A stretch of DNA of 33,909 nucleotides, taken from positions 1-33,909 of the IMG/VR virus record IMGVR_UViG_3300011116_000306; one strand, written 5' to 3'. Shown here in pieces: positions 3,105 through 32,285 of the stretch. Made by a program: the position numbers and the translations under genes. The notes below the pieces were generated by a model that had not been told where the DNA came from, ran no database searches, and was given only the letters and a program-made list of their open reading frames with translations. Numbering within the stretch: the first letter of the stretch is position 1; every line of letters begins with the position of its first letter. This DNA comes from a virus.

Positions 3105-4082
3105 ATGGCTTTTGCGAATACGTCCGTTACGGACATTATTGCTACTACGATTCAGTCGCGTACTCGCCAGATTGCGGATAACGTCACCAAAAACAATGCT
3201 TTGCTTGCCCGTCTTAATAACCGTGGCAACGTAAAGCCGTTTGGCGGCGGTAACGTGATCTTCCAGGAACTTTCGTTCCAGCAGAACGGCAATGCCGGTT
3301 TCTATAGCGGTTACGATCTTCTGCCGGTTGCGGCGGCTGACGTTATCAGCGCGGCTGAATTTAACATTAAGCAGCTTGCTTGCCCGGTCGTTATGAGCGG
3401 CCTGGAAATGTTGCAGAACGCTGGCCGTGAGCAGTTTATTGACTTGCTCGAAGCCCGCATGAACGTTGCCGAAAGCACGATGGCTAATAAGCTGGCGCAG
3501 TCGGTTTATAGCGATGGTACTGGTTCTGGCGGTAAGGAAGTGACCGGCCTTGATGCGGCGGTTCCTTCTGACCCGACCACTGGCACTTACGGCGGCATTG
3601 ACCGCGCTACTTGGTCTTTCTGGCGTTCGCAGCTTTATGACTTTAGCTCTCAGAGTGTCACTCCGTCCTCGACCACGATCCAGGCGGCGATGAACACTCT
3701 TTGGTCCTCGTTGGTTCGTGGCTCTGATCGTCCTGATTTGGTCGTTCTGAGCAATTCCTACTGGACCTATTACATGACTTCGCTCCAGGCGCAGCAGCGG
3801 TTTACCGACCCCAAGACTGGCGATCTTGGTTTCCCGACGATCAAGTTTATGGATGCTGACGTTGTGCTTGATGGCGGTATTGGTGGCTATTGCCCGGCCA
3901 ATACTGGCTTCATGCTCAACACGAAGTACATTTTCCTGCGTCCTCACAAGGATCGTAACATGGTTGCTCTTAGCCCGACGCGGCGCTATGCGATCAACCA
4001 GGACGCGGAAGTTCAGATTCTGGCTTGGGCTGGCAATCTGACTTCTTCGGGCGCTCAGTTCCAGGGTCGTATCCAGAATTAA
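3105..4082 (+). CDS. Major capsid protein (325 aa)
   Basis: Follows the scaffold gene. GGAGAA SD, long leader, strong terminator downstream. Size and sequence are typical of podovirus HK97-fold capsid proteins. Confidence 0.8.
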   Translation: MAFANTSVTDIIATTIQSRTRQIADNVTKNNALLARLNNRGNVKPFGGGNVIFQELSFQQNGNAGFYSGYDLLPVAAADVISAAEFNIKQLACPVVMSGLEMLQNAGREQFIDLLEARMNVAESTMANKLAQSVYSDGTGSGGKEVTGLDAAVPSDPTTGTYGGIDRATWSFWRSQLYDFSSQSVTPSSTTIQAAMNTLWSSLVRGSDRPDLVVLSNSYWTYYMTSLQAQQRFTDPKTGDLGFPTIKFMDADVVLDGGIGGYCPANTGFMLNTKYIFLRPHKDRNMVALSPTRRYAINQDAEVQILAWAGNLTSSGAQFQGRIQN

Positions 4083-6094: not shown

Positions 6095-7681
6095 ATGCCA
6101 TTACAGCCACTTCGTTCATTCAAAGCGCCAAGGTTATCGGCAGCTACGCAAACGTCGCAGCTTAGTGTTGCGCCGCCGCCTGTTGGCGGCTTAAATTTTC
6201 GTGATCCAATCAATGCAATGCCAATTACTGATGCAATGGTATTGCGTAATTTTATCCCCAACAAAACTGGATGTACTCTTAGAAAAGGCTATCAGTATCA
6301 CACGACTGAATTGGATGATCCTGTAGTCTCTTTGTTTTCCTATAACAGCGCAGATGGAACAACGAACAAACTGTTTGCTGCTTCTGGTGGAGACATTTGG
6401 GACGTAACTACGGAAACTCCAGCCGTATCCCAAGCCAGCACTGGCTCTGACGAAGATCAGTGGAATACAACACAGTTTGCAAATGGCGCTGGAAACTTTT
6501 TGCTGGCCGTTTCTCCTGGTGCTGGTTATTGGACTTATGACGGAACATCTTGGACGCACCAGAGCGTAACCAATCTTCCGGCCAATCCAACTAGCGTTGC
6601 TGTCTTTAAAAACCGCGTTTGGTTTACAATTAAAGACAGTTCAAGCGTTTGGTACTTGGACACCATCGACGCAATTACAGGAACCGCACAAGAATTTGTG
6701 ATGGGTTCTTTGTTGCGGAATGGCGGCTATATTCGCGGTCTAATCAACTGGACGGTTGACGCCGGTGTGTCGTTTGACGACTTCCTTGTTGTAGTGGGAA
6801 GTGAAGGCGATCTTGGAGTTTGGCAAGGAACCGACCCCTCAGACGCAACTAAGTTTGCGCTAAAAGGCGTTTGGTATGTTGGTCCTGTTCCGAAATACGG
6901 AAGATTCTTTACCGCTTATGGCGGCGATGTTTTGATAATTTCAACGCTTGGCCTGGTTGAAATGTCAAAACTGGTTAATGGGCAATTTGTAAATACTCAG
7001 CAGGGACCATCTGCAAAAATAGAAACTGTGCTTGGCCCAATCATTAAACAGTATCTAAATGAACCATCTTTTGATGTTCAGATTGTTGCTGATAGCGAAG
7101 TTCTTATTCTAAAACTTCCGCCTCAGAAGAATGTTTATATTCAATATGTGATGAATATAAACACAGCTTCCTGGTGTACGTTTAGTGGTTTGCCAATGGT
7201 TTGCACTGCGTTGCTTGGCGGCAAACTCTATTTTGCAACGGACTCATATCGAATTGTAAAAGGTCTTTATGGTGAATTTGACCAAGTAGAGACTGACTCT
7301 GAAGGCGGTCAGCCCATAGAAGGCGAAGTGCAAACGGCATTTAACGATTTTACTTCACCTGGGCAATTAAAGCAGTTTGTGATGGTAAAGCCTATTTTTA
7401 CTGCATCTCAAGCTCCAAGCGTAAAGCTCCGTGTAAACACTCAATATAGTTTTCAGCCGGTGGCCGGATCGCCGTCTTTTGTTAAAGATCAAAGTTCATA
7501 TTGGGATGAGGCCAAATGGAATTTGGCTAACTGGTCGTCTGCAACAAACACTTATGAATTTTGGTATGGGGTTAGGGCGCTTGGATATTATGGCGCTCTA
7601 AGCATGAGGCTGCGTGGTTTTGGTGGAACCACAAATTTTTATAGCTACCACATAATGAATCAGATTGGCGGGGTAATGTAA
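6095..7681 (+). CDS. Virion structural protein (528 aa), possible tail tubular/nozzle protein
   Basis: Large beta-rich ORF downstream of the head genes. Assignment is by position only. Confidence 0.45.
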   Translation: MPLQPLRSFKAPRLSAATQTSQLSVAPPPVGGLNFRDPINAMPITDAMVLRNFIPNKTGCTLRKGYQYHTTELDDPVVSLFSYNSADGTTNKLFAASGGDIWDVTTETPAVSQASTGSDEDQWNTTQFANGAGNFLLAVSPGAGYWTYDGTSWTHQSVTNLPANPTSVAVFKNRVWFTIKDSSSVWYLDTIDAITGTAQEFVMGSLLRNGGYIRGLINWTVDAGVSFDDFLVVVGSEGDLGVWQGTDPSDATKFALKGVWYVGPVPKYGRFFTAYGGDVLIISTLGLVEMSKLVNGQFVNTQQGPSAKIETVLGPIIKQYLNEPSFDVQIVADSEVLILKLPPQKNVYIQYVMNINTASWCTFSGLPMVCTALLGGKLYFATDSYRIVKGLYGEFDQVETDSEGGQPIEGEVQTAFNDFTSPGQLKQFVMVKPIFTASQAPSVKLRVNTQYSFQPVAGSPSFVKDQSSYWDEAKWNLANWSSATNTYEFWYGVRALGYYGALSMRLRGFGGTTNFYSYHIMNQIGGVM

Positions 7682-13087: not shown

Positions 13088-15160
13088 ATGCCGCGCAATG
13101 GATCAGGGACTTATACGCTTCCCGTTGGCAATCCAGTTGAGCCAAATACCGTTATCGAAGCTGAATGGGCTAATACAACGCTCGATGATATTGGCAATGA
13201 GATTACGGATTCGCTATCGCGTACAGGCGAAGGCGGTATGCTTGCGCCTTTGCGTTTTTATGCCGGTACGGCTGGTGTCCCTGGCATTGGTTGGCTTGAT
13301 GAAACCAGCAGCGGTTTTTATAGGTCTGGCGCTGGTGAATTTTGGGCAACTGTTCTTGGTACAGAAGTTGTCCAATTCTCGGATACGGGCGTTTTAATTC
13401 CTGCTGGCGTCGATCTTACTGTAGAAGGCAACGTAGACTTCCAGGGTACGTTTGACGTACTTGGAAACTTTGAAGTTAATACAGATAAGTTTGTAGTTAC
13501 GGCGGCATCCGGCAACACCACGATTGCCGGAACGCTTGGAGTAACAGGACTTATTACGGCGACAGGTGGTGTAAACGGCGCTGTTACGTCATCGTCAGTA
13601 ACAATTACTGGCGGAACAATTAATAGCACCAGCATTGGGGCCACAACTGCATCAAGCGGCGCGTTTACTACGCTTTCCGCTTCTGGGGCTTTTAGTCTTA
13701 CTGGCGATCAGGTGCAAGTCAGCGAAGGCGGCACTGGCGCAACAACGGCGGCTGGAGCCAGGTCTGCCATTTTGCCGTCATACTCCACCAACGCGCTTAA
13801 ATTCCTGCGCGTTAATTCTGGTGCAACTGACGTTGAATGGGCGGCAGAACCTAGCCTTGGGACGGTTACAAGTGTTGATGTTTCCGGCGGCACTACTGGT
13901 CTAACTAGCTCTGGTGGCCCCGTTACCACAAGCGGAACAATTACGCTTGCTGGTACTTTGGTGGTCGGAAATGGCGGTACTGGCGTAACTACGCTTACCG
14001 GCCTTGTTAAAGGCAACGGCACTAGTGCGTTTAGTGCTGCTACTGCCGGTACAGATTACATTGCACCAGGCGGCGCTCTTGGTACTCCGTCTAGCGGTAC
14101 TTTGACAAATTGTACCAGTTTGCCGCTATCGACCGGTGTCACTGGGACGCTTGCGGCTACTAATGGCGGCACAGCGCAAAGCACTTGGACTACGGGCGAT
14201 CTTCTTTATGCAAGTGCATCAAATACGCTTTCAAAGCTTGGTATTGGAACTTCAGGCCAGATTTTAAAAGTATCCGGCGGTTTGCCATCTTGGGCTACTG
14301 ATACTTCTAGCGGAACCGTAACTAGTATTGATGTGTCTGGTGGCACGACCGGATTAACTACTTCCGGTGGACCTGTAACTTCTAGCGGCACCATTACGTT
14401 GGCTGGAACTCTTGCTGTAGCCAATGGGGGTACGGGTCAAACTTCTTATACTGATGGTCAGCTTCTTATTGGCAAAAGCACTGGCAATACGCTAGCTAAA
14501 GCTACTCTTACGGCTGGCTCTGGCATTACCATCACCAATGGAAGCGGCACTATCACCATCGCCTCAACGGCTGGCGGCGGAAGTGTAACGAGTGTTGCTC
14601 AGAGCTTTACTGGCGGTCTTATTTCTGTTTCTGGATCGCCAATTACGACTTCTGGAACGCTGGCATTGACTGTTGCCGGGACCAGCGGCGGGATACCCTA
14701 TTTTAGCAGCGCGTCGGCTTGGGCTTCGTCAGCCGCGCTTACTCAATATGGTGTTGTTTATGGTGGGGGCGCTGGCGCTGCTCCGTCCTCAACTGCAAAC
14801 GGTACGACCGGCCAAGTTCTGACTGCCACAACTGGTAGTGCGCCAACCTGGCAAACTCCTGCTACTCCTGCCGCGCTTTACACGACGACTACAATCACAG
14901 GCGCTACAAATGCGGCTGTGAGTACTGCGTATAGAGCAACAACGGCTGCGTACACCGTCACGCTTCCGACGATGGCAACAAACGATTGGGTTGTGGTTGG
15001 CCGAGATCAAACCGCAGGTAACACTACGATTGGCCGCAATAGCCAAACCATTGACGGCGCTGCGGAAAATTTTGTGATTGATGTAGACAAAGTGATCGTC
15101 CTGTTCATCTGCACCGGCAGCGGAACAGTGGTAACTCGTTTAATAGGACAACTGCCATGA
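13088..15160 (+). CDS. Tail fibre protein (690 aa) with internal repeats
   Basis: N-terminus MPRNGSGTYTLPVGNPVEPNTVIEAEWANTTLDDIGNEITDSLSRTGEGGM is typical of phage tail-fibre N-terminal domains. The rest is Gly/Thr/Ser-rich, with recurrent (A/G)NGGTG motifs. Confidence 0.8.
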   Translation: MPRNGSGTYTLPVGNPVEPNTVIEAEWANTTLDDIGNEITDSLSRTGEGGMLAPLRFYAGTAGVPGIGWLDETSSGFYRSGAGEFWATVLGTEVVQFSDTGVLIPAGVDLTVEGNVDFQGTFDVLGNFEVNTDKFVVTAASGNTTIAGTLGVTGLITATGGVNGAVTSSSVTITGGTINSTSIGATTASSGAFTTLSASGAFSLTGDQVQVSEGGTGATTAAGARSAILPSYSTNALKFLRVNSGATDVEWAAEPSLGTVTSVDVSGGTTGLTSSGGPVTTSGTITLAGTLVVGNGGTGVTTLTGLVKGNGTSAFSAATAGTDYIAPGGALGTPSSGTLTNCTSLPLSTGVTGTLAATNGGTAQSTWTTGDLLYASASNTLSKLGIGTSGQILKVSGGLPSWATDTSSGTVTSIDVSGGTTGLTTSGGPVTSSGTITLAGTLAVANGGTGQTSYTDGQLLIGKSTGNTLAKATLTAGSGITITNGSGTITIASTAGGGSVTSVAQSFTGGLISVSGSPITTSGTLALTVAGTSGGIPYFSSASAWASSAALTQYGVVYGGGAGAAPSSTANGTTGQVLTATTGSAPTWQTPATPAALYTTTTITGATNAAVSTAYRATTAAYTVTLPTMATNDWVVVGRDQTAGNTTIGRNSQTIDGAAENFVIDVDKVIVLFICTGSGTVVTRLIGQLP
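13859..13984 (+). repeat. Tail-fibre repeat copy 1 (GTVTSVDVSGGTTGLTSSGGPVTTSGTITLAGTLVVGNGGTG)
   Basis: 42-aa block repeated 151 aa downstream. Conserved at protein level, diverged at synonymous DNA positions. Confidence 0.8.
14312..14437 (+). repeat. Tail-fibre repeat copy 2 (GTVTSIDVSGGTTGLTTSGGPVTSSGTITLAGTLAVANGGTG)
   Basis: See copy 1. A degenerate third copy (GSVTSVAQSFTGGLISVSGSPITTSGTLALTVAGTSGG) begins near 14579. Confidence 0.8.
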
Positions 15161-17993: not shown

Positions 17994-19070
17994 CTAAAAC
18001 GGAATCGGATCATCGTGAAATGGAGCATTGTCAACGACAGGCTTTACATTCTTAATTCTTGCAGTAGGCATAACGGTTTTTATTTCATGCACAACACCTT
18101 CGGTCACAAGATCGGCTGGCATCATAGCAAGTTCTTTCGACTGATAGTGTCCTTCGCCATTCTTAAAGACTTTGCCAGTTTTCTTATGCTGGTACTCAAC
18201 ATAACCTTCAGCAGCGTCAATGGCATCTGCAAACGGCACTAGCGCCGGAATGAACATATGCGATGAACAAGCTGCGTTTTGCTTTGTCTCGGTAATTGTC
18301 ATTTTATGATACTCGCAATGCCACTTGCTTTCTGACTGCGGCGTAGCGTGTACGCAAGTGCGACAATTAACTGCGGCAATTTTGTCTTGATGGCACAAAT
18401 TGTAAAAATCGCATGTTTTACATTCCCAATAAGCCGGGTCTTGGCTAATGCGATCCGGCGGCTGTTGTGCCTCTATAGTGGTTCTGGCGCGTTGATATAT
18501 ACCGTCATAACCCTTTTTATCAAAATGGACCCATTCTCCATAAATCTCATCATTGTCTTTATTAACCGCAAAATAATATGCGCGATCTAGTTTCATCAGC
18601 GCCATATACACTTGCATCTGGACCCAATGACGCGGCTTGCTTTCTTGAACGCCTTTTTTCTCAAGGTCAGCAAAAGACTTTGCGTTATGAGTCTTAATTT
18701 CTAATACAGCCCATGTTTTAGGGCTTTCTTTGAAGCCCATGCCGATAGCGTCAACGCTTCCGCCAAAATGACCGCTATCATCACGACACTCAATTTGTTT
18801 GCCGTTATCATGCGTATGCAACTCAACGCCAATAGCCTTTAGTTCCTTAAACACGCGATCTTCTTCGCGCTTGCCGGTGTCAAAAAGGCGTTTAATGCGC
18901 CAATTAAAGTCAGGCAGTTTGGCCCACCGGAATGTGAGCCAAACATGCCTGTTACAGTTATGACCAATTACACTTGCCCCAAGGTGGGGTCTATGCGCCT
19001 CGGTTTTAGCTGCGTACCAATCTGCGATGGCTTGAGCAGTACCGTTTTGGCTCTGGGGCAAGAATACCAT
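17994..19070 (-). CDS. Cas4/RecB-family PD-(D/E)XK exonuclease with Fe-S Cys cluster (358 aa)
   Basis: GSVDAIG...AVLEIKT nuclease motifs. One N-terminal Cys (GHNCNRH) plus C-x2-C-x5-C (CKTCDFYNLC), as in Cas4/AddB. Cys/His-rich C-terminal extension ending FHDDPIPF. Confidence 0.75.
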   Translation of the reverse strand: MVFLPQSQNGTAQAIADWYAAKTEAHRPHLGASVIGHNCNRHVWLTFRWAKLPDFNWRIKRLFDTGKREEDRVFKELKAIGVELHTHDNGKQIECRDDSGHFGGSVDAIGMGFKESPKTWAVLEIKTHNAKSFADLEKKGVQESKPRHWVQMQVYMALMKLDRAYYFAVNKDNDEIYGEWVHFDKKGYDGIYQRARTTIEAQQPPDRISQDPAYWECKTCDFYNLCHQDKIAAVNCRTCVHATPQSESKWHCEYHKMTITETKQNAACSSHMFIPALVPFADAIDAAEGYVEYQHKKTGKVFKNGEGHYQSKELAMMPADLVTEGVVHEIKTVMPTARIKNVKPVVDNAPFHDDPIPF

Positions 19071-19544: not shown

Positions 19545-20282
19545 TTACTTTGTGGTGGTAATTGCGTTTTCAAATGCTTCCCAGGTCAACGTAATCTTGT
19601 CTTGCAAGCTGTATCTGTTTTTAGCCATGTAAGCGGGACGCTCGTTGCAATGGAGCAGCCGTTCGCCTGATCCAATACCGCGAGCAACTGTTTTGTTAAA
19701 TCCTACCTCCTCCTTCGTTACGACTGTTTTGTAGTTTGCAAACATAACTGCATCAACCCACTCTCGGATTAACGCATTGCTACGCTCTTGCAGCTTCGGC
19801 TGATAACGGTCGTATGGCTCTGTCTCAGGACTATCAAACCGCTTGATTGTGCAATGCGCGAGCAAAATAACAATCATGCCTTTGTCGTTGCGGAGCGCGT
19901 TTAAACCAATCAGTATTTCGCGCCATTTCTCTGCGGCAATGATCGAGCCTTTGCCATACGCCAAATCCTTGGCATCGTGAGTAGCCTCAATTTCCGCCCA
20001 TAGGAAATTTTCAAGCCAATCCAAACTATCAATCACAACAGTCTTAAAATTGTGCTTGTTTTGATACAGCGAACCAATGGCTTCAAGCACGTTTGTCGTA
20101 CTGGTTGCCAAAGGAAAGTGATCTACTTCCAAACTTCCTAAACCATCCTCGGTTGGAATAAAAATCGGCGCTGGCGCTCCAGCCGCAAATGTACTTTTTC
20201 CGATACCTTCAACGCCATAAATCATAATGCGCGGCGCTGATATGCTGGTGTTTTTCTTTACGCTGTTAAGGTCAAACGCCAT
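19545..20282 (-). CDS. AAA_24 / Sak4-like RecA-fold recombination ATPase (245 aa)
   Basis: Walker A in IMIYGVEGIGKST, Walker B in KTVVIDSLD, and the family-typical ...NERPAYMAKNRYSL C-terminus. Confidence 0.8.
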   Translation of the reverse strand: MAFDLNSVKKNTSISAPRIMIYGVEGIGKSTFAAGAPAPIFIPTEDGLGSLEVDHFPLATSTTNVLEAIGSLYQNKHNFKTVVIDSLDWLENFLWAEIEATHDAKDLAYGKGSIIAAEKWREILIGLNALRNDKGMIVILLAHCTIKRFDSPETEPYDRYQPKLQERSNALIREWVDAVMFANYKTVVTKEEVGFNKTVARGIGSGERLLHCNERPAYMAKNRYSLQDKITLTWEAFENAITTTK

Positions 20283-21034: not shown

Positions 21035-22960
21035 ATGAAAAATTCAGAATTTCTTGCGGCGCTTGGGGGCGCTGGCGAAGATCATTACCTATGGATTACG
21101 CACTTTGCGGCTGATCCTAGTCAGGCAAGCCAAGGTCAATGGGCTGGTCGAATGTACCAGCACAAAATCAGCCAAGCTAACTTGATTGACACAGTTTCCA
21201 GCCAGAATGTTTATTTCTGTCCAGCCGTTCTATCTGGCCTTGATGAAAGCGGATCGTTTAAACGCAGCAAAAACCACTTTTGCAGACTCGCCGCGCTTGG
21301 CGTTGATGACGTAAACATTGATGACATTAACGGCAAAGTCTCATGGATATTTGAGACAAGCCCGCTGAATTACCAAGCTGGCATATTGCTGGATGAAGCC
21401 GACCAGGACGCAGCCAATTTGGCGCTGGTCGATGCTGTTATGTCTGAATTGGCTGATAAAGGGCTTATTAAAGCAGACAAGTCTGGCAACAATGCTGTTC
21501 GTTATATGCGGTTGCCTCATGCAAAAAACACAAAACAACGCGCTACTGGACCGCATGACGTTCGTGTTGTTAGTTCTGACTTAATCAATAAATACAGCCT
21601 TGCAGATGCCTGTGCTGCTTTTGGAATTGATTTGGATGCCTTACGCGGCAAGCAATCAACTACAAAAGAAAGCATTAAAAATGTTACAGGCTCTAGCCAT
21701 GCAGAGCTAATTGCAGCATTAGCACAAGATGATCCTGCTGATCGCAGCTATCACGACCCATTACTAAAGCTATCTAGCAAACTTGTGTCTGCTGGACTAA
21801 ATCCAGGCGCAGTAGTCGAGCATTTGCGCGGGCTTATGCTGGCTATCCGTCCGCAAGACGCAACAGAACTTAGCCGGTGGCAATCACGCTACGATGAAAT
21901 TCCCAGGCTTGTTCTTGGCGCTCAAAAGTTTGCACCGGAGCCAAAGCAACAGCCTGTATCAGATGGCGGATTGCTGCTTGATATATCGACATTGGAAAGC
22001 CGGTCAAAAGCCGTTAAATGGCTTGTTAAAGGCTTTATTCCAGCCGACAGCATGGGCGTCTTGTTTGGTGCGTCAGGCGCATACAAGTCATTTCTGGCAA
22101 TAGATTTGGGATTGCATATTTCGCACAGTTTAAACTGGGTAAACCGTAAAACAAAGCCAGGCCCGGTTGTTTATGTCGCATCTGAAGGCGGCGCTGGTAT
22201 TTATCGCCGGATTGCAGCTTGGCATAAGCTAAACAAACGCCAACTGCCGAATAACTTTTGGACTTGTGCCACGCCGCTGGTTTTGACGGATGAAGATAGT
22301 CTGAAGGCTCTCAGAAAAGACATTCAGGCATTACCTGAACAGCCTAGCTTGATTATTGTTGATACATTCAGCCAGACGTTTTTTGGAGATGAAAACGCGG
22401 CCACGGATGTAAGTGAATATTTCCGGCAGATTAACACTCATTTGCGTGAGCCATTTAATGCGACGGTTATCGTAATCCATCACATTGGACACTCAAATGA
22501 TAATGCCGGTCGTCCTCGCGGCTCTAGCGCGTTCACAGCAAACGTAGATTTTCTGCTGGCTGTCAGGCGCGACGGCGATCTTGCAGCGTCGATTGAAGTA
22601 ACCAAACAGAAAGATGGCGATAAAATATCATCCCAGGCATTTAACCTGGAATCTCAGCCGTTATGGGAAGATGAAGATGGAGATACGATTACTTCGCTTG
22701 CAGCAAAGCATGTAAACATTATTGAGCAGATTAAAACCGGCAATGCAACGCTAGGCGAGACAGATAAAGTTATTTTGGATTTTATTACATTGAACGTCAG
22801 CGTTACCAAGAACGATGTAACTGCATTTGTTGCAAAGAAGTCAAAGAATGAAAAATCAGCTTACGTTATGGCAATGCGCTCGTTGAAAAAGCTGCAAGAG
22901 CTTACGCTGATTAGGCACACCATAGACGACAAGTATGTAGTCATGGGCGAGGTTTTATAA
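21035..22960 (+). CDS. Primase / RecA-like (AAA_25, RepA-type) replicative ATPase fusion (641 aa)
   Basis: C-terminal half has Walker A in GVLFGASGAYKS, Walker B in SLIIVDTFS, then VIHHIGHS...GRPRGSSAF. N-terminal half has LGVDDVN and ETSPLNYQAGILL, reminiscent of RepB-prime/primase-polymerase-type primases. Confidence 0.65.
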   Translation: MKNSEFLAALGGAGEDHYLWITHFAADPSQASQGQWAGRMYQHKISQANLIDTVSSQNVYFCPAVLSGLDESGSFKRSKNHFCRLAALGVDDVNIDDINGKVSWIFETSPLNYQAGILLDEADQDAANLALVDAVMSELADKGLIKADKSGNNAVRYMRLPHAKNTKQRATGPHDVRVVSSDLINKYSLADACAAFGIDLDALRGKQSTTKESIKNVTGSSHAELIAALAQDDPADRSYHDPLLKLSSKLVSAGLNPGAVVEHLRGLMLAIRPQDATELSRWQSRYDEIPRLVLGAQKFAPEPKQQPVSDGGLLLDISTLESRSKAVKWLVKGFIPADSMGVLFGASGAYKSFLAIDLGLHISHSLNWVNRKTKPGPVVYVASEGGAGIYRRIAAWHKLNKRQLPNNFWTCATPLVLTDEDSLKALRKDIQALPEQPSLIIVDTFSQTFFGDENAATDVSEYFRQINTHLREPFNATVIVIHHIGHSNDNAGRPRGSSAFTANVDFLLAVRRDGDLAASIEVTKQKDGDKISSQAFNLESQPLWEDEDGDTITSLAAKHVNIIEQIKTGNATLGETDKVILDFITLNVSVTKNDVTAFVAKKSKNEKSAYVMAMRSLKKLQELTLIRHTIDDKYVVMGEVL

Positions 22961-25264: not shown

Positions 25265-25288
25265 GTTTAGTTTCCTTTTGTTGAAATG

Positions 25289-25546
25289 TTAGCCGTCGCC
25301 GGAGCCGTAGCCGGAGCCGTAGCCGGAGCCGTAGCCGTAGCCGTCGCCGTAGCCGTAGCCGGAGCCGTAGCCGGAGCCGGAGCCGTAGCCGGAGCCGGAG
25401 CCGTCGCCGTAGCCGTAGCCGTAGCCGGAGCCGTCGCCGTAGCCGGAGCCGGAGCCGTCGCCGTAGCCGTAGCCGGAGCCGTAGCCGGAGCCGGAGCCGT
25501 CGCCGTAGCCGTAGCCGGAGCCGTAGCCGTCATTTACTTTGCCCAT
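25289..25546 (-). CDS. Alternating (Gly-Tyr/Ser/Asp)n low-complexity mini-protein (85 aa); reading frame uncertain
   Basis: ATG 25546 has GAGG 6 nt upstream. Product is MGKVND + (G-X)39 + G with X only Y, S or D. Two other minus-strand frames are also open across the array. Confidence 0.45.
   Translation of the reverse strand: MGKVNDGYGSGYGYGDGSGSGYGSGYGYGDGSGSGYGDGSGYGYGYGDGSGSGYGSGSGYGSGYGYGDGYGYGSGYGSGYGSGDG
25292..25528. repeat. Hexanucleotide array: GCC + 39 units of GTAGCC / GGAGCC / GTCGCC
   Basis: Read directly from the sequence. No unit deviates from these three variants. Confidence 0.95.
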
Positions 25547-25911
25547 CCCGCACCTCGAAGGCACTTTTCGCCTTCTTTCGTCGTCGGAATAATCTCAATC
25601 ACTTGCATCAGCAAAATGCTGTCAACGGAATCACTAATCTTGGATGTCTTTTCCACGCCCTTGGACGCAATTTCGTGCAGCGTATTGGCACCCGTCCACG
25701 ACCAAATGCGCTTGGCATCAGTCAGCACACATTCCTGGCCGTTGCGGGATTTCAAAACCCCCACATGCACACCAGCCGAATAAGTGCGGACTACAACGTA
25801 TTTCCCAACAAACTCGCAGCACATATTGTTAGACGCCGCCTGTTGATTACCAAACATACACGCAAGTTGCTTGGCTTCTCCGATAGTCAAATCATCAATT
25901 TTCATGTTCAT
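25534..25911 (-). CDS. Conserved-looking hypothetical phage protein (125 aa)
   Basis: AGGAGAA SD. The sequence GKYVVVRTYSAGVHVGVLKSRNGQECVLTDAKRIWSWTGANTLHEIA resembles proteins I have seen in other phages. No family name assigned. Confidence 0.65.
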   Translation of the reverse strand: MNMKIDDLTIGEAKQLACMFGNQQAASNNMCCEFVGKYVVVRTYSAGVHVGVLKSRNGQECVLTDAKRIWSWTGANTLHEIASKGVEKTSKISDSVDSILLMQVIEIIPTTKEGEKCLRGAGWAK

Positions 25912-26857: not shown

Positions 26858-27127
26858 CTATTGGCAACACTGTTTGACCATCTGCTCGATGCACAATTCA
26901 TCAGTCTGGATATGCTGATAAATGTCACCTGGCGCGTCAGTGCCGTCAGCCAGCTTGGCCGATAGTACGTCGATCTCTGGCCCGTGCGCGGGTTCCCAGT
27001 AGCTACCAGGAAACCCTGGCATGTAATTGTATTGCACCGTCACATCAATTTCCTCCGGCGCGTCCTCGGGATGGTCGGGGCGTAGGTGCGGCAGATAGAT
27101 TGACAGCGTGATTTCGTGTTTACGCAT
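26858..27127 (-). CDS. Hypothetical acidic protein (89 aa)
   Basis: Start overlaps the upstream stop by 8 nt. Translation MRKHEITLSIYLPHLRPDHPEDAPEEIDVTVQYNYMPGFPGSYWEPAHGPEIDV... Confidence 0.55.
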   Translation of the reverse strand: MRKHEITLSIYLPHLRPDHPEDAPEEIDVTVQYNYMPGFPGSYWEPAHGPEIDVLSAKLADGTDAPGDIYQHIQTDELCIEQMVKQCCQ

Positions 27128-27866
27128 GGCACTGCTCCAACAGCGAGATTAACTTATCGGACATGCGCTGATATGCCCCCGCCGCCGCATCCGCCGCCTC
27201 CGCCGCCACATCCGCCGCCGCCCTCGCCGCCGCCCTCGCCGCCGCCCTCGCCGCCGCCCTCGCCGCCCACCTCGCCGCCCACGCCGCCGCATCCGCCGCA
27301 TCCGCCGCCGCCGCCCACGCCGCCGCCCGCGCCGCCCACCTCGCCGCCGCTTTCGCCGCATCCGCCACCCACGCCTCCGCCCGCGCCGCCTCCGCCGCCC
27401 CCCGCGCCGCCGCCTCACGGTCAACCGGCTCGCCGCAAGTCAGCGGCAGCAACACATCAGCGCATTTCGCAATAGCAGCGTTTACACGCTTGTCGTTTGT
27501 TTTCGGCAATTCGTCGGTCAACAGCCAGTGCAAGAACTTCCACCCCACCCGCGATAAATCCGCGCCAGGGATGATGGCGGCGCTAAACCGCACAGGCCAC
27601 TTCATCGCGTCGGCATTGGCAAGCCCCTCAAATATTGCATCTTCTAGCCGCGCCAGCATCTGCGGGATACCGAGCAGCCGTTCGTATTCGGCATGTTTGT
27701 TTGTTTCAATCGCGCCGAGACTGTGCAAAGTACAGCCCACCGCGCACCCTTTGCCGTCCTCCCAATACTGGCCCTTCACCAGCCGGTCGACGTCGGCGTG
27801 AGCCTGTAGATCAGCCAGTAGCTTGGCCTTGATGGCCGGGTCATTGTGATATGCGAGCAGGGTCAT
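27120..27866 (-). CDS. Two-domain protein (248 aa): globular N-terminal domain plus Ala/Arg/Trp-rich repeat domain
   Basis: Start set at ATG 27866 (ATGA overlap). Non-repetitive N-terminus (...KGQYWEDGKGCAVGCTLHS...) followed by ...AARWAARAAAWAAAADAADAAAWAARWAARAAARAAARAAARAAADVAAEAADAAAGA and the tail YQRMSDKLISLLEQCHA. Confidence 0.65.
   Translation of the reverse strand: MTLLAYHNDPAIKAKLLADLQAHADVDRLVKGQYWEDGKGCAVGCTLHSLGAIETNKHAEYERLLGIPQMLARLEDAIFEGLANADAMKWPVRFSAAIIPGADLSRVGWKFLHWLLTDELPKTNDKRVNAAIAKCADVLLPLTCGEPVDREAAARGAAEAARAEAWVADAAKAAARWAARAAAWAAAADAADAAAWAARWAARAAARAAARAAARAAADVAAEAADAAAGAYQRMSDKLISLLEQCHA
27214..27261. repeat. Four perfect tandem copies of the 12-mer GCCGCCGCCCTC (encodes AARA x4 on the minus strand)
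   Basis: Counted directly. It is embedded in about 240 nt (27176-27420) of GCC-periodic sequence. Confidence 0.95.
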
Positions 27867-27952
27867 GCGATCACCATAAGCCAAAGATAAATTACACCTA
27901 ACAGCGCGAGCAGCGCCGCACCTTCTGCGATTGCGATAAATAGCTGTTTCAT
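27863..27952 (-). CDS. Tiny hydrophobic peptide (29 aa, single TM)
   Basis: Not in the track. Translation MKQLFIAIAEGAALLALLGVIYLWLMVIA. ATGA overlaps with both the upstream stop and the downstream start. Confidence 0.45.
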   Translation of the reverse strand: MKQLFIAIAEGAALLALLGVIYLWLMVIA

Positions 27953-28182
27953 TGTTCCCACCCTGTAATGACTACGAACTCAGCCCCACCTTCGGGCAAC
28001 TGCACCTGTAGATACTTGCCAGTCATTCCATGCACCCGCATGAACGATTGCGCGGCTTTCAAATGATCGGCCTTTGTGTTTTGTGCCGGCGAAAAGAGCA
28101 TTTTGGCATCATGGCTCCAGGCGCTTATGCGTCCGGTTTTTGTGCCTGTGGGCGGGTGGTACTTGGTTAAAATGGCGAGCAT
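27949..28182 (-). CDS. Hypothetical protein (77 aa)
   Basis: GAGGA SD. Translation MLAILTKYHPPTGTKTGRISAWSHDAKMLF... Confidence 0.55.
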   Translation of the reverse strand: MLAILTKYHPPTGTKTGRISAWSHDAKMLFSPAQNTKADHLKAAQSFMRVHGMTGKYLQVQLPEGGAEFVVITGWEQ

Positions 28183-28230: not shown

Positions 28231-28794
28231 TTACGCAACGTTGATTGACCCGCCGCAATGGCAAGTCGGAAGGCCAGCGTCCACATTCTTTTGCGCTGTG
28301 CGGCAGGTCCAGCCGCAATCGTCGCAAGCCAACTTAATCATGCGGGTATTTTGCTTTTTGCGCCCGGAGAGTGCGGTATTGAGCGCCGCATGAGGATATG
28401 CGCCAAGCTGAGAGATAATGGCCGTTAGGCGGGCTGTAAGATCGGCACCGGCAGTTGTGCTAGTCATTTTGCCCTCCAGGCCAAGGGCAAGCGCAAGGCG
28501 TTTAAACGCGCCTTTGTGCCCATGCTCTAGGCCAACAGCGGCATGAACCAACTCATGCACAAGGATAGCCAGGACGTTGGTTGCGTTGGACTGTGAGGGA
28601 CAAATAAAGACTTCGGTGGTTGCATCGGCGCTTGCGGCAGGGGACCAGCACTCGCCAATGCGCTTGAGCTTTCCGCCCTTGCCGCCAGCAGGGATACCGA
28701 CAGATACGCGGACGGGAGGGAGCGGGTAACCCTGGGCATTGAACCAGGGGGACATAAGAGCGGTAGCAGCGTTAAGGTATTCTTCGCGGGTCAT
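28231..28794 (-). CDS. SprT-like zinc metallopeptidase with C-terminal zinc ribbon (187 aa)
   Basis: HExxH in LAILVHELVHAAVGLEHGHKGAFKRLA. C-terminal CDDCGW...CHCGG. Confidence 0.65.
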   Translation of the reverse strand: MTREEYLNAATALMSPWFNAQGYPLPPVRVSVGIPAGGKGGKLKRIGECWSPAASADATTEVFICPSQSNATNVLAILVHELVHAAVGLEHGHKGAFKRLALALGLEGKMTSTTAGADLTARLTAIISQLGAYPHAALNTALSGRKKQNTRMIKLACDDCGWTCRTAQKNVDAGLPTCHCGGSINVA

Positions 28795-30950: not shown

Positions 30951-32285
30951 ATGGACATTAATGAATACGTCCCGCGAGACATATTTTTGCCGCTGCACCA
31001 GCGGGACAAACGTTGGGCAGTTGTTATAGCGCACCGCCGCGCTGGCAAGACTGTTGCGATGTGCGCGGATATATTGATTAGCGCATTGCAGTGTCGGCAT
31101 CCAAAGCCGCAGTTTGCGTATTTAGCGCCGTTTCGGGATCAGGCGAAGAAGGTGGCGTGGAGTTATATTAAGGATTTGAGCAAACCGTTATGGGCGGCGC
31201 AGCCTAATGAAACGGAATTGCATGTAAGTTTATTTAACGGAAACAATGGGGTTAGCCGGATTTATGTAGGTGGTGCGGATCATCCTGATGCTTGGCGCGG
31301 GATGTATTTTGACGGTGTTGTGTTGGATGAGGTTGGGCAGATTAGGCCGAGTGCGTGGTATTCGGTTTTGCGCCCGGCATTATCGGATCGGCGCGGGTGG
31401 GCGATATTTGCTGGCACCCCGGCTGGTAAGAACTTCTTTTGGCAGATGCGCGAGGAAGCTCGGTTGAATCCTGGGACGCACATGCTTTTGGAATTACCGG
31501 CGTCCAAGACGAATATTTTGCATCCTGATGAGTTGCGGGATGCGCGGGCGCAGATGACTGAAGAAACGTATGCGACTGAATATGAAATTAGTTTTGATGC
31601 GGCTATGCCTGGGGCGTATTACTCCAAATTGATTGGGGAGGCGTATGACGAGGGGCGGGTTGGTGTATTTCCGGCCAGTTCTGAATTTCCGGTCGATCTT
31701 GTGGCTGACCTTGGGTACACGGACAGTTGCAGTTGGTGGGGTTGGCAGACGCAGCCTGATGGCTACAAGATTGTAGATTTTTACGAAGCCGATAATCAGC
31801 CGATTGCTCATTATATTGAATGGGTTAAAACCAGACCGTATAAGGTTAGGGATATATATTTGCCGCATGATGCGAAGGCCAAGAGCCTTCAGACCGGCAA
31901 GAGCATTATTGAGCAGTTTTTAGCAAACGGCATACACCCGAAGCTGGTTCCTGAACTGTCTTTGCAGGATGGGATTGAGGCGGCCAGGCTTACTTTGCCG
32001 AAGTGTTGGTTTGACGAAAAAACGGTTTATGATGGGCTGGAACACTTAAGGGCGTATAAGCGGGAGTGGGACGAGCGCACCCAGACGTATCGCAACAGGC
32101 CACGGCATGACCAGCATAGCCATGCGTCTGATGCGTTTAGGTATTTTGCGCTGAGTTGCAAGCCGGTATCGAGCGCAAAACGGAGCAGCACTGCAAGCAG
32201 CGTTTACACGGCCAGAAGTATGTATGAATTTAATTTAGAAGATATTTGGGAATGTCAGCCTAAAACAAGCGGAAGGTTGGGCTAA
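30951..32285 (+). CDS. terL: Terminase large subunit (444 aa)
   Basis: Walker A-like AHRRAGKT, Walker B in GVVLDEVGQ, and a C-terminal RNaseH-like nuclease region ending HDQHSHASDAFRYF. Confidence 0.9.
   Translation: MDINEYVPRDIFLPLHQRDKRWAVVIAHRRAGKTVAMCADILISALQCRHPKPQFAYLAPFRDQAKKVAWSYIKDLSKPLWAAQPNETELHVSLFNGNNGVSRIYVGGADHPDAWRGMYFDGVVLDEVGQIRPSAWYSVLRPALSDRRGWAIFAGTPAGKNFFWQMREEARLNPGTHMLLELPASKTNILHPDELRDARAQMTEETYATEYEISFDAAMPGAYYSKLIGEAYDEGRVGVFPASSEFPVDLVADLGYTDSCSWWGWQTQPDGYKIVDFYEADNQPIAHYIEWVKTRPYKVRDIYLPHDAKAKSLQTGKSIIEQFLANGIHPKLVPELSLQDGIEAARLTLPKCWFDEKTVYDGLEHLRAYKREWDERTQTYRNRPRHDQHSHASDAFRYFALSCKPVSSAKRSSTASSVYTARSMYEFNLEDIWECQPKTSGRLG

Follow-up and report, generated by a model that had tools for sequence, protein, structure and literature searches.

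The 33,909-nt stretch of the IMG/VR virus record IMGVR_UViG_3300011116_000306, called here the window and used at its full length for all positions, is a tailed-phage genome whose minus-strand open reading frame (ORF) 27120-27866 encodes a protein with an alanine-rich tandem repeat. To judge from its sequence, this ORF is a real gene in an early operon and belongs to a very large and undescribed phage-borne family, the members of which join a conserved N-terminal domain (N-domain) to a repeat of variable length and to a conserved C-terminal helix. Units of 9, 12 and 21 nt are gained and lost in frame, by which the repeat is created and rebuilt as DNA, and selection acts on it as protein. Our confidence is high for this picture taken jointly, that is, for the architecture, the reading frame, the constraint, the turnover, the phage carriage and a predicted closure of the repeat into a hairpin. 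A functional reading of the N-domain and the hairpin is proposed only tentatively, and the complete explanation uniting family architecture, renewed hairpin and function is regarded as probable, with considerable reserve.

Architecture and extent of the gene family

The first-pass annotation, made from the sequence alone, had described a protein consisting of a non-repetitive N-terminal part, an Ala/Arg/Trp repeat and a normal tail, and the ORF of 248 aa containing all three quoted sequences is present at its coordinates (Table 1). The N-domain is most widely conserved over a core of amino acids (aa) 1-118, and distant relatives match residues 3-118. The repeat region is composed of 53 Ala, 9 Arg, 5 Trp, 5 Asp and 4 Glu among other residues, contains no Thr and has a net charge of +1 over 81 residues. 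A period-12 array was delimited at 27179-27414 by Tandem Repeats Finder (19.7 copies, 71% matches), and the four perfect 12-bp copies of GCCGCCGCCCTC noticed before were recovered by exact string comparison; their coding strand reads ...GCG GCG GCG AGG..., which is Ala-Ala-Ala-Arg four times. The G+C fraction reaches 0.82 in the tract and is about 0.53-0.56 in its flanks. The Trp residues are found at 166, 177, 184, 196 and 200, with the spacings of 11, 7, 12 and 4 that had been reported. In the C-terminal helix L242 is invariant and Y232, M235, K238 and L239 are nearly so. The true start is likely the ATG at 27866, favoured over the upstream TTG at 27884 because this ATG shares an ATGA overlap with the stop of the preceding 29-aa ORF (27863-27952). 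The protein appears to be cytoplasmic, no obvious signal peptide being visible by eye, without a predictor.

A search of a 90%-clustered protein database with the N-terminal 151 aa alone (E≤1e-3) retrieved 1,449 homologues; every named match among them is 'hypothetical' and none has a Pfam domain. A profile of the N-domain reached at least 3,829 representatives of 50%-identity clusters, 2,701 with E≤1e-10, and the three-part plan is kept by more than 3,800 homologue clusters. The C-terminal parts were examined in the best 120 homologues, and N-domain, Ala-rich repeat (15-131 aa) and tail could be delimited in 102 of them. The conserved tail, Y-x-x-M-A-x-K-L-x-x-L, follows in frame however long the repeat. 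Among the 109 complete ORFs of the fetched loci the length of the repeat is 5-238 aa, and its median across the family is 76-84 aa. Comparison with related phage contigs, as suggested in the first-pass annotation, thus gave one plan with a hypervariable repeat. Similar Ala/Trp-repeat hypothetical proteins of bacteria, which it mentioned without naming a family, do exist, and those on long contigs belong to prophages or phage-like contigs.

That the tail keeps its frame whatever the length of the repeat identifies the Ala frame as the one translated, as had been argued from its normal flanks. Homologues with a frame-shifted or absent repeat and a different C-terminus had been named as what would speak against this, and the homologues found show the opposite. 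We also considered that the tract might be misassembled, or that the true gene might lie in the plus-strand poly-Pro frame or in a minus-strand Arg- or Gly-rich one. All four frames are indeed open across the tract, as the ORF list confirms, with the plus-strand frame at 27116-27475 and the other two minus-strand frames at 27149-27424 and 27154-27372; related contigs often end within the repeat; the exact protein, searched with both possible starts, has no record in any other assembly searched; and a few homologues are frame-shifted into Pro or Arg/Gly frames (L062, L113, L137, P0200), which may be errors or pseudogenes. However, the conserved C-terminal helix is in frame in this protein and in most homologues, the perfect copies span only 48 nt while the remaining array is imperfect, so that unique words are present, and overlaps of starts and stops chain the gene to its neighbours in the Ala frame. 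An artefact of either kind is therefore scarcely credible.

The family has no name, domain model or structure and no paper on it was found; likewise, its N-domain has no detectable solved relative. The profile and structure check proposed earlier for this domain brought many family members and no PDB or curated-family match. The protein did not match PHROGs v4 at E≤1, and its best Pfam hit (E=0.28) was below the cut-off. A single stray DUF7740 match (E=0.003) was obtained when 98 family members were compared with Pfam-A; 27 N-domains gave nothing under E=0.013 in NCBIfam 20, and 50 family members had no match in PADLOC 2.0. The best E value of the family profile against PDB sequences was 0.57, and a repeat-only search of the same sequences found no match. 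With Foldseek against PDB, the best result was E=5 and a template modelling (TM) score of 0.16 for the full model of the protein, and E=1.4 with TM≤0.25 for the model of a compact homologue. Against BFVD, the full model retrieved only A0A6J5QCR4, an uncharacterised phage protein (E=1e-8, 35% identity) that appears to be a member of the same family. Megablast of a 3-kb region against GenBank phages gave no close DNA match, and a repeat-only homology search produced 8,000 word candidates of which none scored, composition correction having probably removed them. No relevant paper was found by topic or by signature peptides (SAAWSAA, GKGCAVGC and others), and, as far as a search by terms reaches into it, the repeat-protein survey PMC10392669 seems not to describe the family. 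Its size, together with the single-codon mark of repeat turnover and the Ala repeat of AT-rich genomes described below, goes beyond what the first-pass annotation contained.

Two variants of the plan were seen in passing. Three paralogues (L094, L095 and L096) lie within about 15 kb of OY728594.2, a 52,210-bp sequence labelled 'chromosome 2' of a Gammaproteobacteria metagenome-assembled genome (MAG). Their hairpins differ, being Tyr/Asp-, Ile/Asp/His- and Leu/Thr/Arg-flavoured, which looks like paralogue diversification. In L027 (match from 2508) a second, unrelated tandem repeat, (K-A-K-R-R)x6, follows the conserved tail and forms a strongly basic extension at the C-terminal end of the ORF.

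Renewal of the repeat as DNA and its constraint as protein

The codon usage of the repeat gives the first evidence of its turnover. GCG accounts for 52 of the 53 Ala codons in the repeat, for 6 of 21 in the N-domain of the same protein and, over 12 further phage genes, for 23%, so the tract is not a product of chance. Its unit is GCG-GCG-GCG-NGG, coding for Ala-Ala-Ala followed by Arg, Trp or Gly, with NGG or GAK (GAT, GAG) as the fourth codon. The closest relative among those compared at the DNA level, L001, has an N-domain 81% identical to that of this protein and is built on another unit, GCG-GCG-GCT-NAT, which gives Ala-Ala-Ala and Asp, Tyr or His. Over 126 loci, the median share of the dominant Ala codon is 0.89 in the repeat versus 0.42 in the N-domain, and the dominant codon of the repeat is GCG in 53 genes, GCC in 40, GCT in 29 and GCA in 4. 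Such dominance of single codons implies that the arrays are young and homogenised and that they are replaced faster than the N-domain diverges.

Differences in unit number between close relatives, on which the earlier expectation of in-frame slippage can be judged, were found in several pairs, all of these length comparisons resting on short-read metagenome assemblies. L013 and L015 are identical at 830 of 830 nt upstream and in the N-domain and are one 21-nt unit apart (E-S-A-E-S-A-A, +21 nt). L013 and L021, which are 99.7% identical across the gene's first 330 nt and 97% over a 702-nt aligned stretch, show a change of -9 nt in the repeat. Between L004 and L008, at 95% identity, the difference is +129 nt, a block of 43 aa bordered by identical G-A-A-R-A-A-A-R-A-A-A-R-A-A motifs, and these flanks are the footprint of unequal recombination. 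Finally, L023 and L024 are 100% identical and their repeats are about 120 aa apart. Slippage or unequal recombination is the likely mechanism of turnover.

The repeat also leaves its mark on assemblies. In 21 of 80 viral contigs, and in 37 of the 146 loci taken together, the contig stops while the ORF is still within the repeat, and on a rough estimate chance breakage would account for only a few per cent in contigs of tens of kb. The 37 loci give an indirect hint that repeat number may also vary within a population. The IMG/VR contigs ending in this way include L003, L012, L015-L018, L022, L023, L029, L034, L035, L040, L042, L045-L047, L051, L053, L059, L063 and L065. As the repeat breaks about one quarter of the assemblies that contain it, it repeatedly leads to fragmented phage contigs and to gene calls that are cut short.

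By mechanism, the protein is a variable protein of the coding tandem-repeat type (VNTR, tandem repeats that vary in number), and neither an on/off phase-variable product nor the target of a diversity-generating retroelement (DGR). In-frame tandem DNA repeats are present inside the coding sequence (19.7 period-12 copies, four of them exact), and copy number differs between near-identical genomes, in short-read metagenome assemblies. Features of the known systems compared here and below are taken from general knowledge. In the streptococcal M and alpha-C proteins, in-frame repeats vary by slippage or unequal recombination and the flanking domains stay constant. The present family resembles them in its varying repeat number, its constant flanks and the homogenisation of its repeats as DNA. 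However, the M and alpha-C proteins are secreted to the surface, where immunity or phages exert selection on them, and they have units of tens of residues and arrays forming an extended fibre, whereas this protein is phage-encoded and seemingly cytoplasmic, the units of its family have 3-7 residues on a single Ala codon, and its array is inserted before a C-terminal helix that closes it. Phase-variable contingency loci carry simple-sequence repeats that switch genes on and off. They share with this family a mutational hot spot of short tandem repeats within a coding region; in contrast, the units found here (9, 12 and 21 nt) are all multiples of 3 and frame-shifted copies are rare, so slippage alters length and surface without switching expression.

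The family is also like DGR target proteins in being phage-borne and in concentrating hypervariability on a conserved scaffold. Hypermutation by such a retroelement, instead of slippage, could be read into the concentration of variation at one base, the first of the unit's fourth codon (NGG in this protein, NAT in L001). However, variants differ by whole units and not by substitutions alone, the variable bases are not adenine-specific, any base occurring at the variable codon position, and the scaffold is helical and not of the C-type lectin fold. In addition, no template repeat appeared in the tandem-repeat scan of the window, dispersed repeats not having been searched for. We rejected this candidate since no reverse transcriptase is found among the window ORFs scanned, and its probability is negligible.

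Constraint on the protein is evident from the base composition of the genomes. The flanking G+C content of family members ranges from 33% to 72%, and throughout this range the reading frame, the Ala content and the balanced charge are kept. Where the flanks have 33-40% G+C the inserts are still Ala-rich and use GCT or GCA; the dominant codon is GCA in L116 (50/52) and L126 (47/48), and GCT in L102 (51/55), L128 (42/42) and L140 (151/158). The unit types in these AT-rich genomes, S-A-A-W, S-A-A-R, S-A-A-E, A-A-A-Y and A-A-A-D, do not differ from those found elsewhere. In 213 proteins the repeat is composed of 45% Ala, 10% Ser, 6% Arg and about 5% each of Asp and Glu, with 6.7% aromatics (median) and low shares of Pro (1.3%) and Gly (2.8%), and the net charge per repeat residue has a family median of -0.01 (range -0.17 to +0.10). 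Ala/Ser positions autocorrelate at lags 3, 4, 7 and 11 across the family, a pattern consistent with a helix that combines an Ala face with a polar or aromatic stripe. E-S-A-A-R and R-S-A-A-E spacings are frequent, and this spacing would permit helix-stabilising i to i+4 salt bridges in Ala-based helices.

The persistence of the Ala repeat as GCT or GCA in AT-rich genomes excludes a G+C-rich DNA motif as the functional object. More generally, the tract could act as DNA or RNA, as iterons, a recombination hot spot, a G-quadruplex stretch or a translational sensor, with the Ala reading incidental. The exact 12-nt copies, the extreme G+C fraction of 0.82, the GGG runs recurring on the coding strand every 12 nt across the four perfect copies and the location of the gene within the replication region would all suit such a role. 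Nevertheless, the GCT/GCA arrays of AT-rich homologues have no GGG runs and retain the amino-acid pattern, frame and C-terminal tail are kept after arrays of any length, and unit sequences vary even among close relatives, so that we consider this extremely unlikely. The forces at the protein and the DNA level combine here: an Ala-helix design is rebuilt from whichever single Ala codon a lineage amplifies.

Predicted hairpin and possible functions

Two AlphaFold2 models were examined, one of this protein (mean predicted local distance difference test, pLDDT, 80; predicted TM score, pTM, 0.70) and one of P0017, a compact homologue whose repeat has only about 20 aa (pLDDT 83, pTM 0.80). The first has helices through residue 143, followed by helix 150-186, a turn and helix 191-245, and the N-domain body of the second is the same. 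The repeat arms have pLDDT 63-82 in the first model and the C-terminal helix has 89-96 in both. From these values and its conservation, the C-terminal helix is predicted to dock on the N-domain; if it does, the repeat must leave the body and re-enter it, and would form an antiparallel helical hairpin closed by that helix. The three Trp of the first predicted repeat helix share one helical face (helical moment 0.99).

The N-domain has a strongly conserved motif at aa 32-45, in which W35, G38, G40, C41, A42 and C45 are invariant in alignments A1, A2 and A3. The same alignments show no variation at H23, D27, D76 and E80 and little or none at H58, E62 and E75. Motif and conserved His, Asp and Glu residues possibly make up a metal- or ligand-binding site, a candidate proposed from sequence conservation. 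The most conserved stretch, G-x-Y-W-x-x-G-K-G-C-A-V-G-C, has the lowest pLDDT of the N-domain in both models (53-66), as would fit a site that needs its metal or ligand.

We propose the following explanation. Repeat units are gained and lost in frame as DNA, each lineage ending with a young array on one Ala codon, and selection on the protein retains frame, Ala content and balanced charge. The C-terminal helix would dock on the N-domain and make the repeat an antiparallel two-helix stalk or finger, whose arms would pack by way of Ala and present Trp/Tyr, Arg and Asp/Glu as exposed stripes. The N-domain, with its invariant His, Cys, Asp and Glu, might be an effector or an anchor, possibly metal-binding, and the hairpin a fast-evolving interaction surface or a spacer that sets reach. 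Such evolution could enable an accessory protein to keep up in conflicts of phages with hosts or with other phages.

Parts of this design have counterparts in known proteins. (EAAAK)n linkers, Marqusee-Baldwin peptides and type I fish antifreeze proteins likewise contain about 45-65% Ala, charges at i to i+4 and an 11-residue periodicity, and Maxi, a type I antifreeze, is a long Ala-rich helix folded as a hairpin, as predicted here. However, type I antifreeze proteins are secreted and carry an 11-residue repeat with an ice-binding Thr stripe (T-x2-D/N-x7), which the Thr-free repeat of this protein cannot reproduce. Unlike all these Ala-based helices, it is fused to a conserved globular domain, phage-borne and hypervariable, and it has no match to a solved chain. 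The predicted shape also resembles that of GreA, GreB and DksA, in which an antiparallel two-helix hairpin projects from a globular domain. The length of their fingers is fixed by the secondary channel of RNA polymerase and their tips have conserved acidic residues, whereas length varies about 40-fold in the present family, which has no conserved tip motif and no fold match.

Several observations weigh against the proposed explanation. First of all, some of the differences in copy number could be assembly collapse, as short-read assemblies were compared, and length is unchanged between L005, L006 and L007, which come from three samples, so the repeat is not hyper-unstable. Some members have short repeats (L044, 167 aa; P0089, 172 aa; also P0032), and the nearly repeatless L044 and P0089 imply that a long hairpin is not essential to the role of the core. 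The inserts of L087-L092 (Rhodopila and other Alphaproteobacteria MAGs) are non-repetitive, of mixed codons and with Pro-containing breaks; their length is nearly constant in proteins of about 225 aa, and they look like 'fossilised' hairpins, possibly of three helices, in which turnover has ended. The helical hairpin foreseen in the first-pass annotation is indeed what AlphaFold2 predicts, but its turn has no Gly, Pro or other helix breaker and the pLDDT near it is only 63-72, so that it remains a prediction. The whole case for the metal site is the conservation of His, Cys, Asp and Glu. In addition, no homology in Pfam, PHROGs, NCBIfam, PADLOC, PDB sequences or Foldseek supports a function.

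These observations bear on the principal rival to the proposed explanation, in which the repeat is a functionless low-complexity linker in runaway expansion. Slippage would create it, selection would only purge variants that break frame or helix, and all the biology would reside in the N-domain and the C-terminal helix. The short-repeat members and the mixed-codon inserts of L087-L092 suit this neutral account, as do a repeat length of 5-238 aa without any conserved position, the strong mutational input seen in single-codon arrays and the higher pTM of the compact homologue than of the long protein. On the other hand, nearly all members across many phyla have an Ala-rich insert, which is regenerated with all four Ala codons even against AT-biased composition; its charge balance is constrained, its aromatic, Pro and Gly contents and its 3/4/7/11 periodicity are those given above, and its median length is substantial. 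We consider a neutral insert somewhat unlikely.

Returning to an adaptive hairpin, a more specific version holds that it is a slippage-driven generator of diversity: an inert Ala scaffold would show stripes of Trp/Tyr, Arg, Asp/Glu and Ser, and shuffling of 3-7-residue units would make new binding surfaces or reaches. This is speculative, and we think it rather doubtful. If true, a single-gene accessory protein could track changing host-defence or rival-phage targets, and the hairpin would be a repeat-based functional analogue of the variable proteins of DGRs. An adaptive hairpin in general would mean that accessory proteins of phages can become hypervariable in a simple way, by means of repeats, and would set a natural precedent for minimal-alphabet helical binders.

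A DNA mimic with anti-restriction activity of the Ocr/ArdA kind was also considered, in which Asp/Glu stripes would pass for a DNA backbone and so inhibit host restriction or other defences that bind DNA. The position in an early operon, the elongated helical shape predicted and the strongly acidic Asp/Tyr arrays of some lineages (L118 and L057, for example) are what such a mimic would have. However, Ocr and ArdA have a strongly negative surface, while the near-neutral charge of this repeat and the family median and range given above show that only some lineages are acidic, and no sequence or fold similarity to solved proteins was detected. On charge, a mimic was rejected for this protein and for the family median, and overall it is very unlikely.

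Genome context and distribution

The features of the window are listed in Table 1. The gene is one of a series of small early genes on the minus strand and lies downstream of a putative SprT-like gene. The start of the 29-aa ORF preceding it overlaps the stop of a 77-aa ORF (27949-28182) and its stop overlaps the ATG of the gene, with ATGA in both cases, which suggests translational coupling. The 29-aa product is probably a single transmembrane helix; this ORF is not conserved beside homologues and is absent upstream of that of L001. No homologue of the 89-aa ORF that follows the gene was found beside other family members.

Table 1. Coordinates of features in the window, with the evidence or remark available for each
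Feature	Position	Strand	Evidence or remark
Major head protein	3105-4082
Amidase-family lysis protein	6095-7681
Tail fibre protein	13088-15160
Cas4-type exonuclease	17994-19070	-
Sak4-like annealing protein	19545-20282	-
Primase-helicase	21035-22960
89-aa ORF downstream of the repeat-protein gene	26858..27127	-	ATG overlaps the stop of the gene as ATGCGTAA; same operon
Repeat-protein gene, complete coding sequence	27120..27866	-	248 aa + stop, from ATG; ORF list and translation
Conserved C-terminal helix YQRMSDKLISLLEQCHA	27123..27173	-	aa 232-248
Ala-based tandem-repeat region	27174..27416	-	aa 151-231, 81 aa
Four exact 12-nt tandem copies, plus strand GCCGCCGCCCTC	27214..27261	-	Exact string comparison
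All-helical N-domain	27417..27866	-	aa 1-150; alignments A1, A2; AlphaFold2 helices 5-143
Signature motif G-Q-Y-W-E-D-G-K-G-C-A-V-G-C	27732..27773	-	aa 32-45; alignment columns
29-aa hydrophobic ORF MKQLFIAIAEGAALLALLGVIYLWLMVIA	27863..27952	-	Direct reading, translation; below the length cut-off of the ORF list
SprT-like candidate, HExxH motif	28231-28794		Matched only PHROGs of unknown function
Terminase large subunit	30951-32285

A scan for promoters and terminators found a single strong hairpin, the minus-strand stem-loop 28201-28223, between the putative SprT-like gene and the 77-aa ORF and thus upstream of the gene. It is a perfect 9-bp all-G/C stem, GGGCGGGGC-CTAGC-GCCCCGCCC, with a weak T-run downstream, and could be a terminator or an attenuator that splits the early operon.

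Family relatives are encoded on 435 IMG/VR contigs. In species-representative genomes 66 family loci were found, almost all in MAGs, and the host taxa include Alpha- and Gammaproteobacteria, Planctomycetota, Bacteroidota, Acidobacteriota, Chloroflexota, Actinomycetota, Patescibacteria and Bdellovibrionota, among others; the family is therefore widespread in phages and prophages of many bacterial phyla, yet unnamed. Members are situated in early modules for replication and recombination or in stretches of small hypothetical genes. In an Aestuariivirga prophage the gene lies between RecT and exonuclease genes on one side and a DNA methylase on the other, with an integrase downstream. Other neighbours are AAA_24 (Sak4-like), DUF7173, SprT-like, DNA polymerase A, Prim-Pol and RusA genes, and some members are found among small hypothetical genes or between structural modules. 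When 15 neighbours in the window were compared by BLAST with the ORFs of all fetched loci, no gene family was linked to the gene beyond one near-identical phage clade, and all-versus-all clustering of 2,523 flanking ORFs gave the same result. The gene behaves as a standalone accessory cassette and, because it has no conserved partner gene, we infer that it works alone.

A second and larger tandem repeat of coding type is found at 25290-25530, 1.6 kb downstream in the same operon. It has 40 hexamer copies, which on the coding strand are GGCTAC (18), GGCTCC (15) and GGCGAC (6), and minus-strand ORFs 25267-25533 and 25289-25564 cover it. The array can be read as (Thr/Pro-Ala)n from an ATG directly after the stop of a DUF6948 gene (TAAATG), or, in a different open frame, as (Gly-Tyr/Ser/Asp)n. 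Long period-6 arrays outside the family gene were also seen in some related loci, among them L075 (6255-6719) and L062 (6319-6455).

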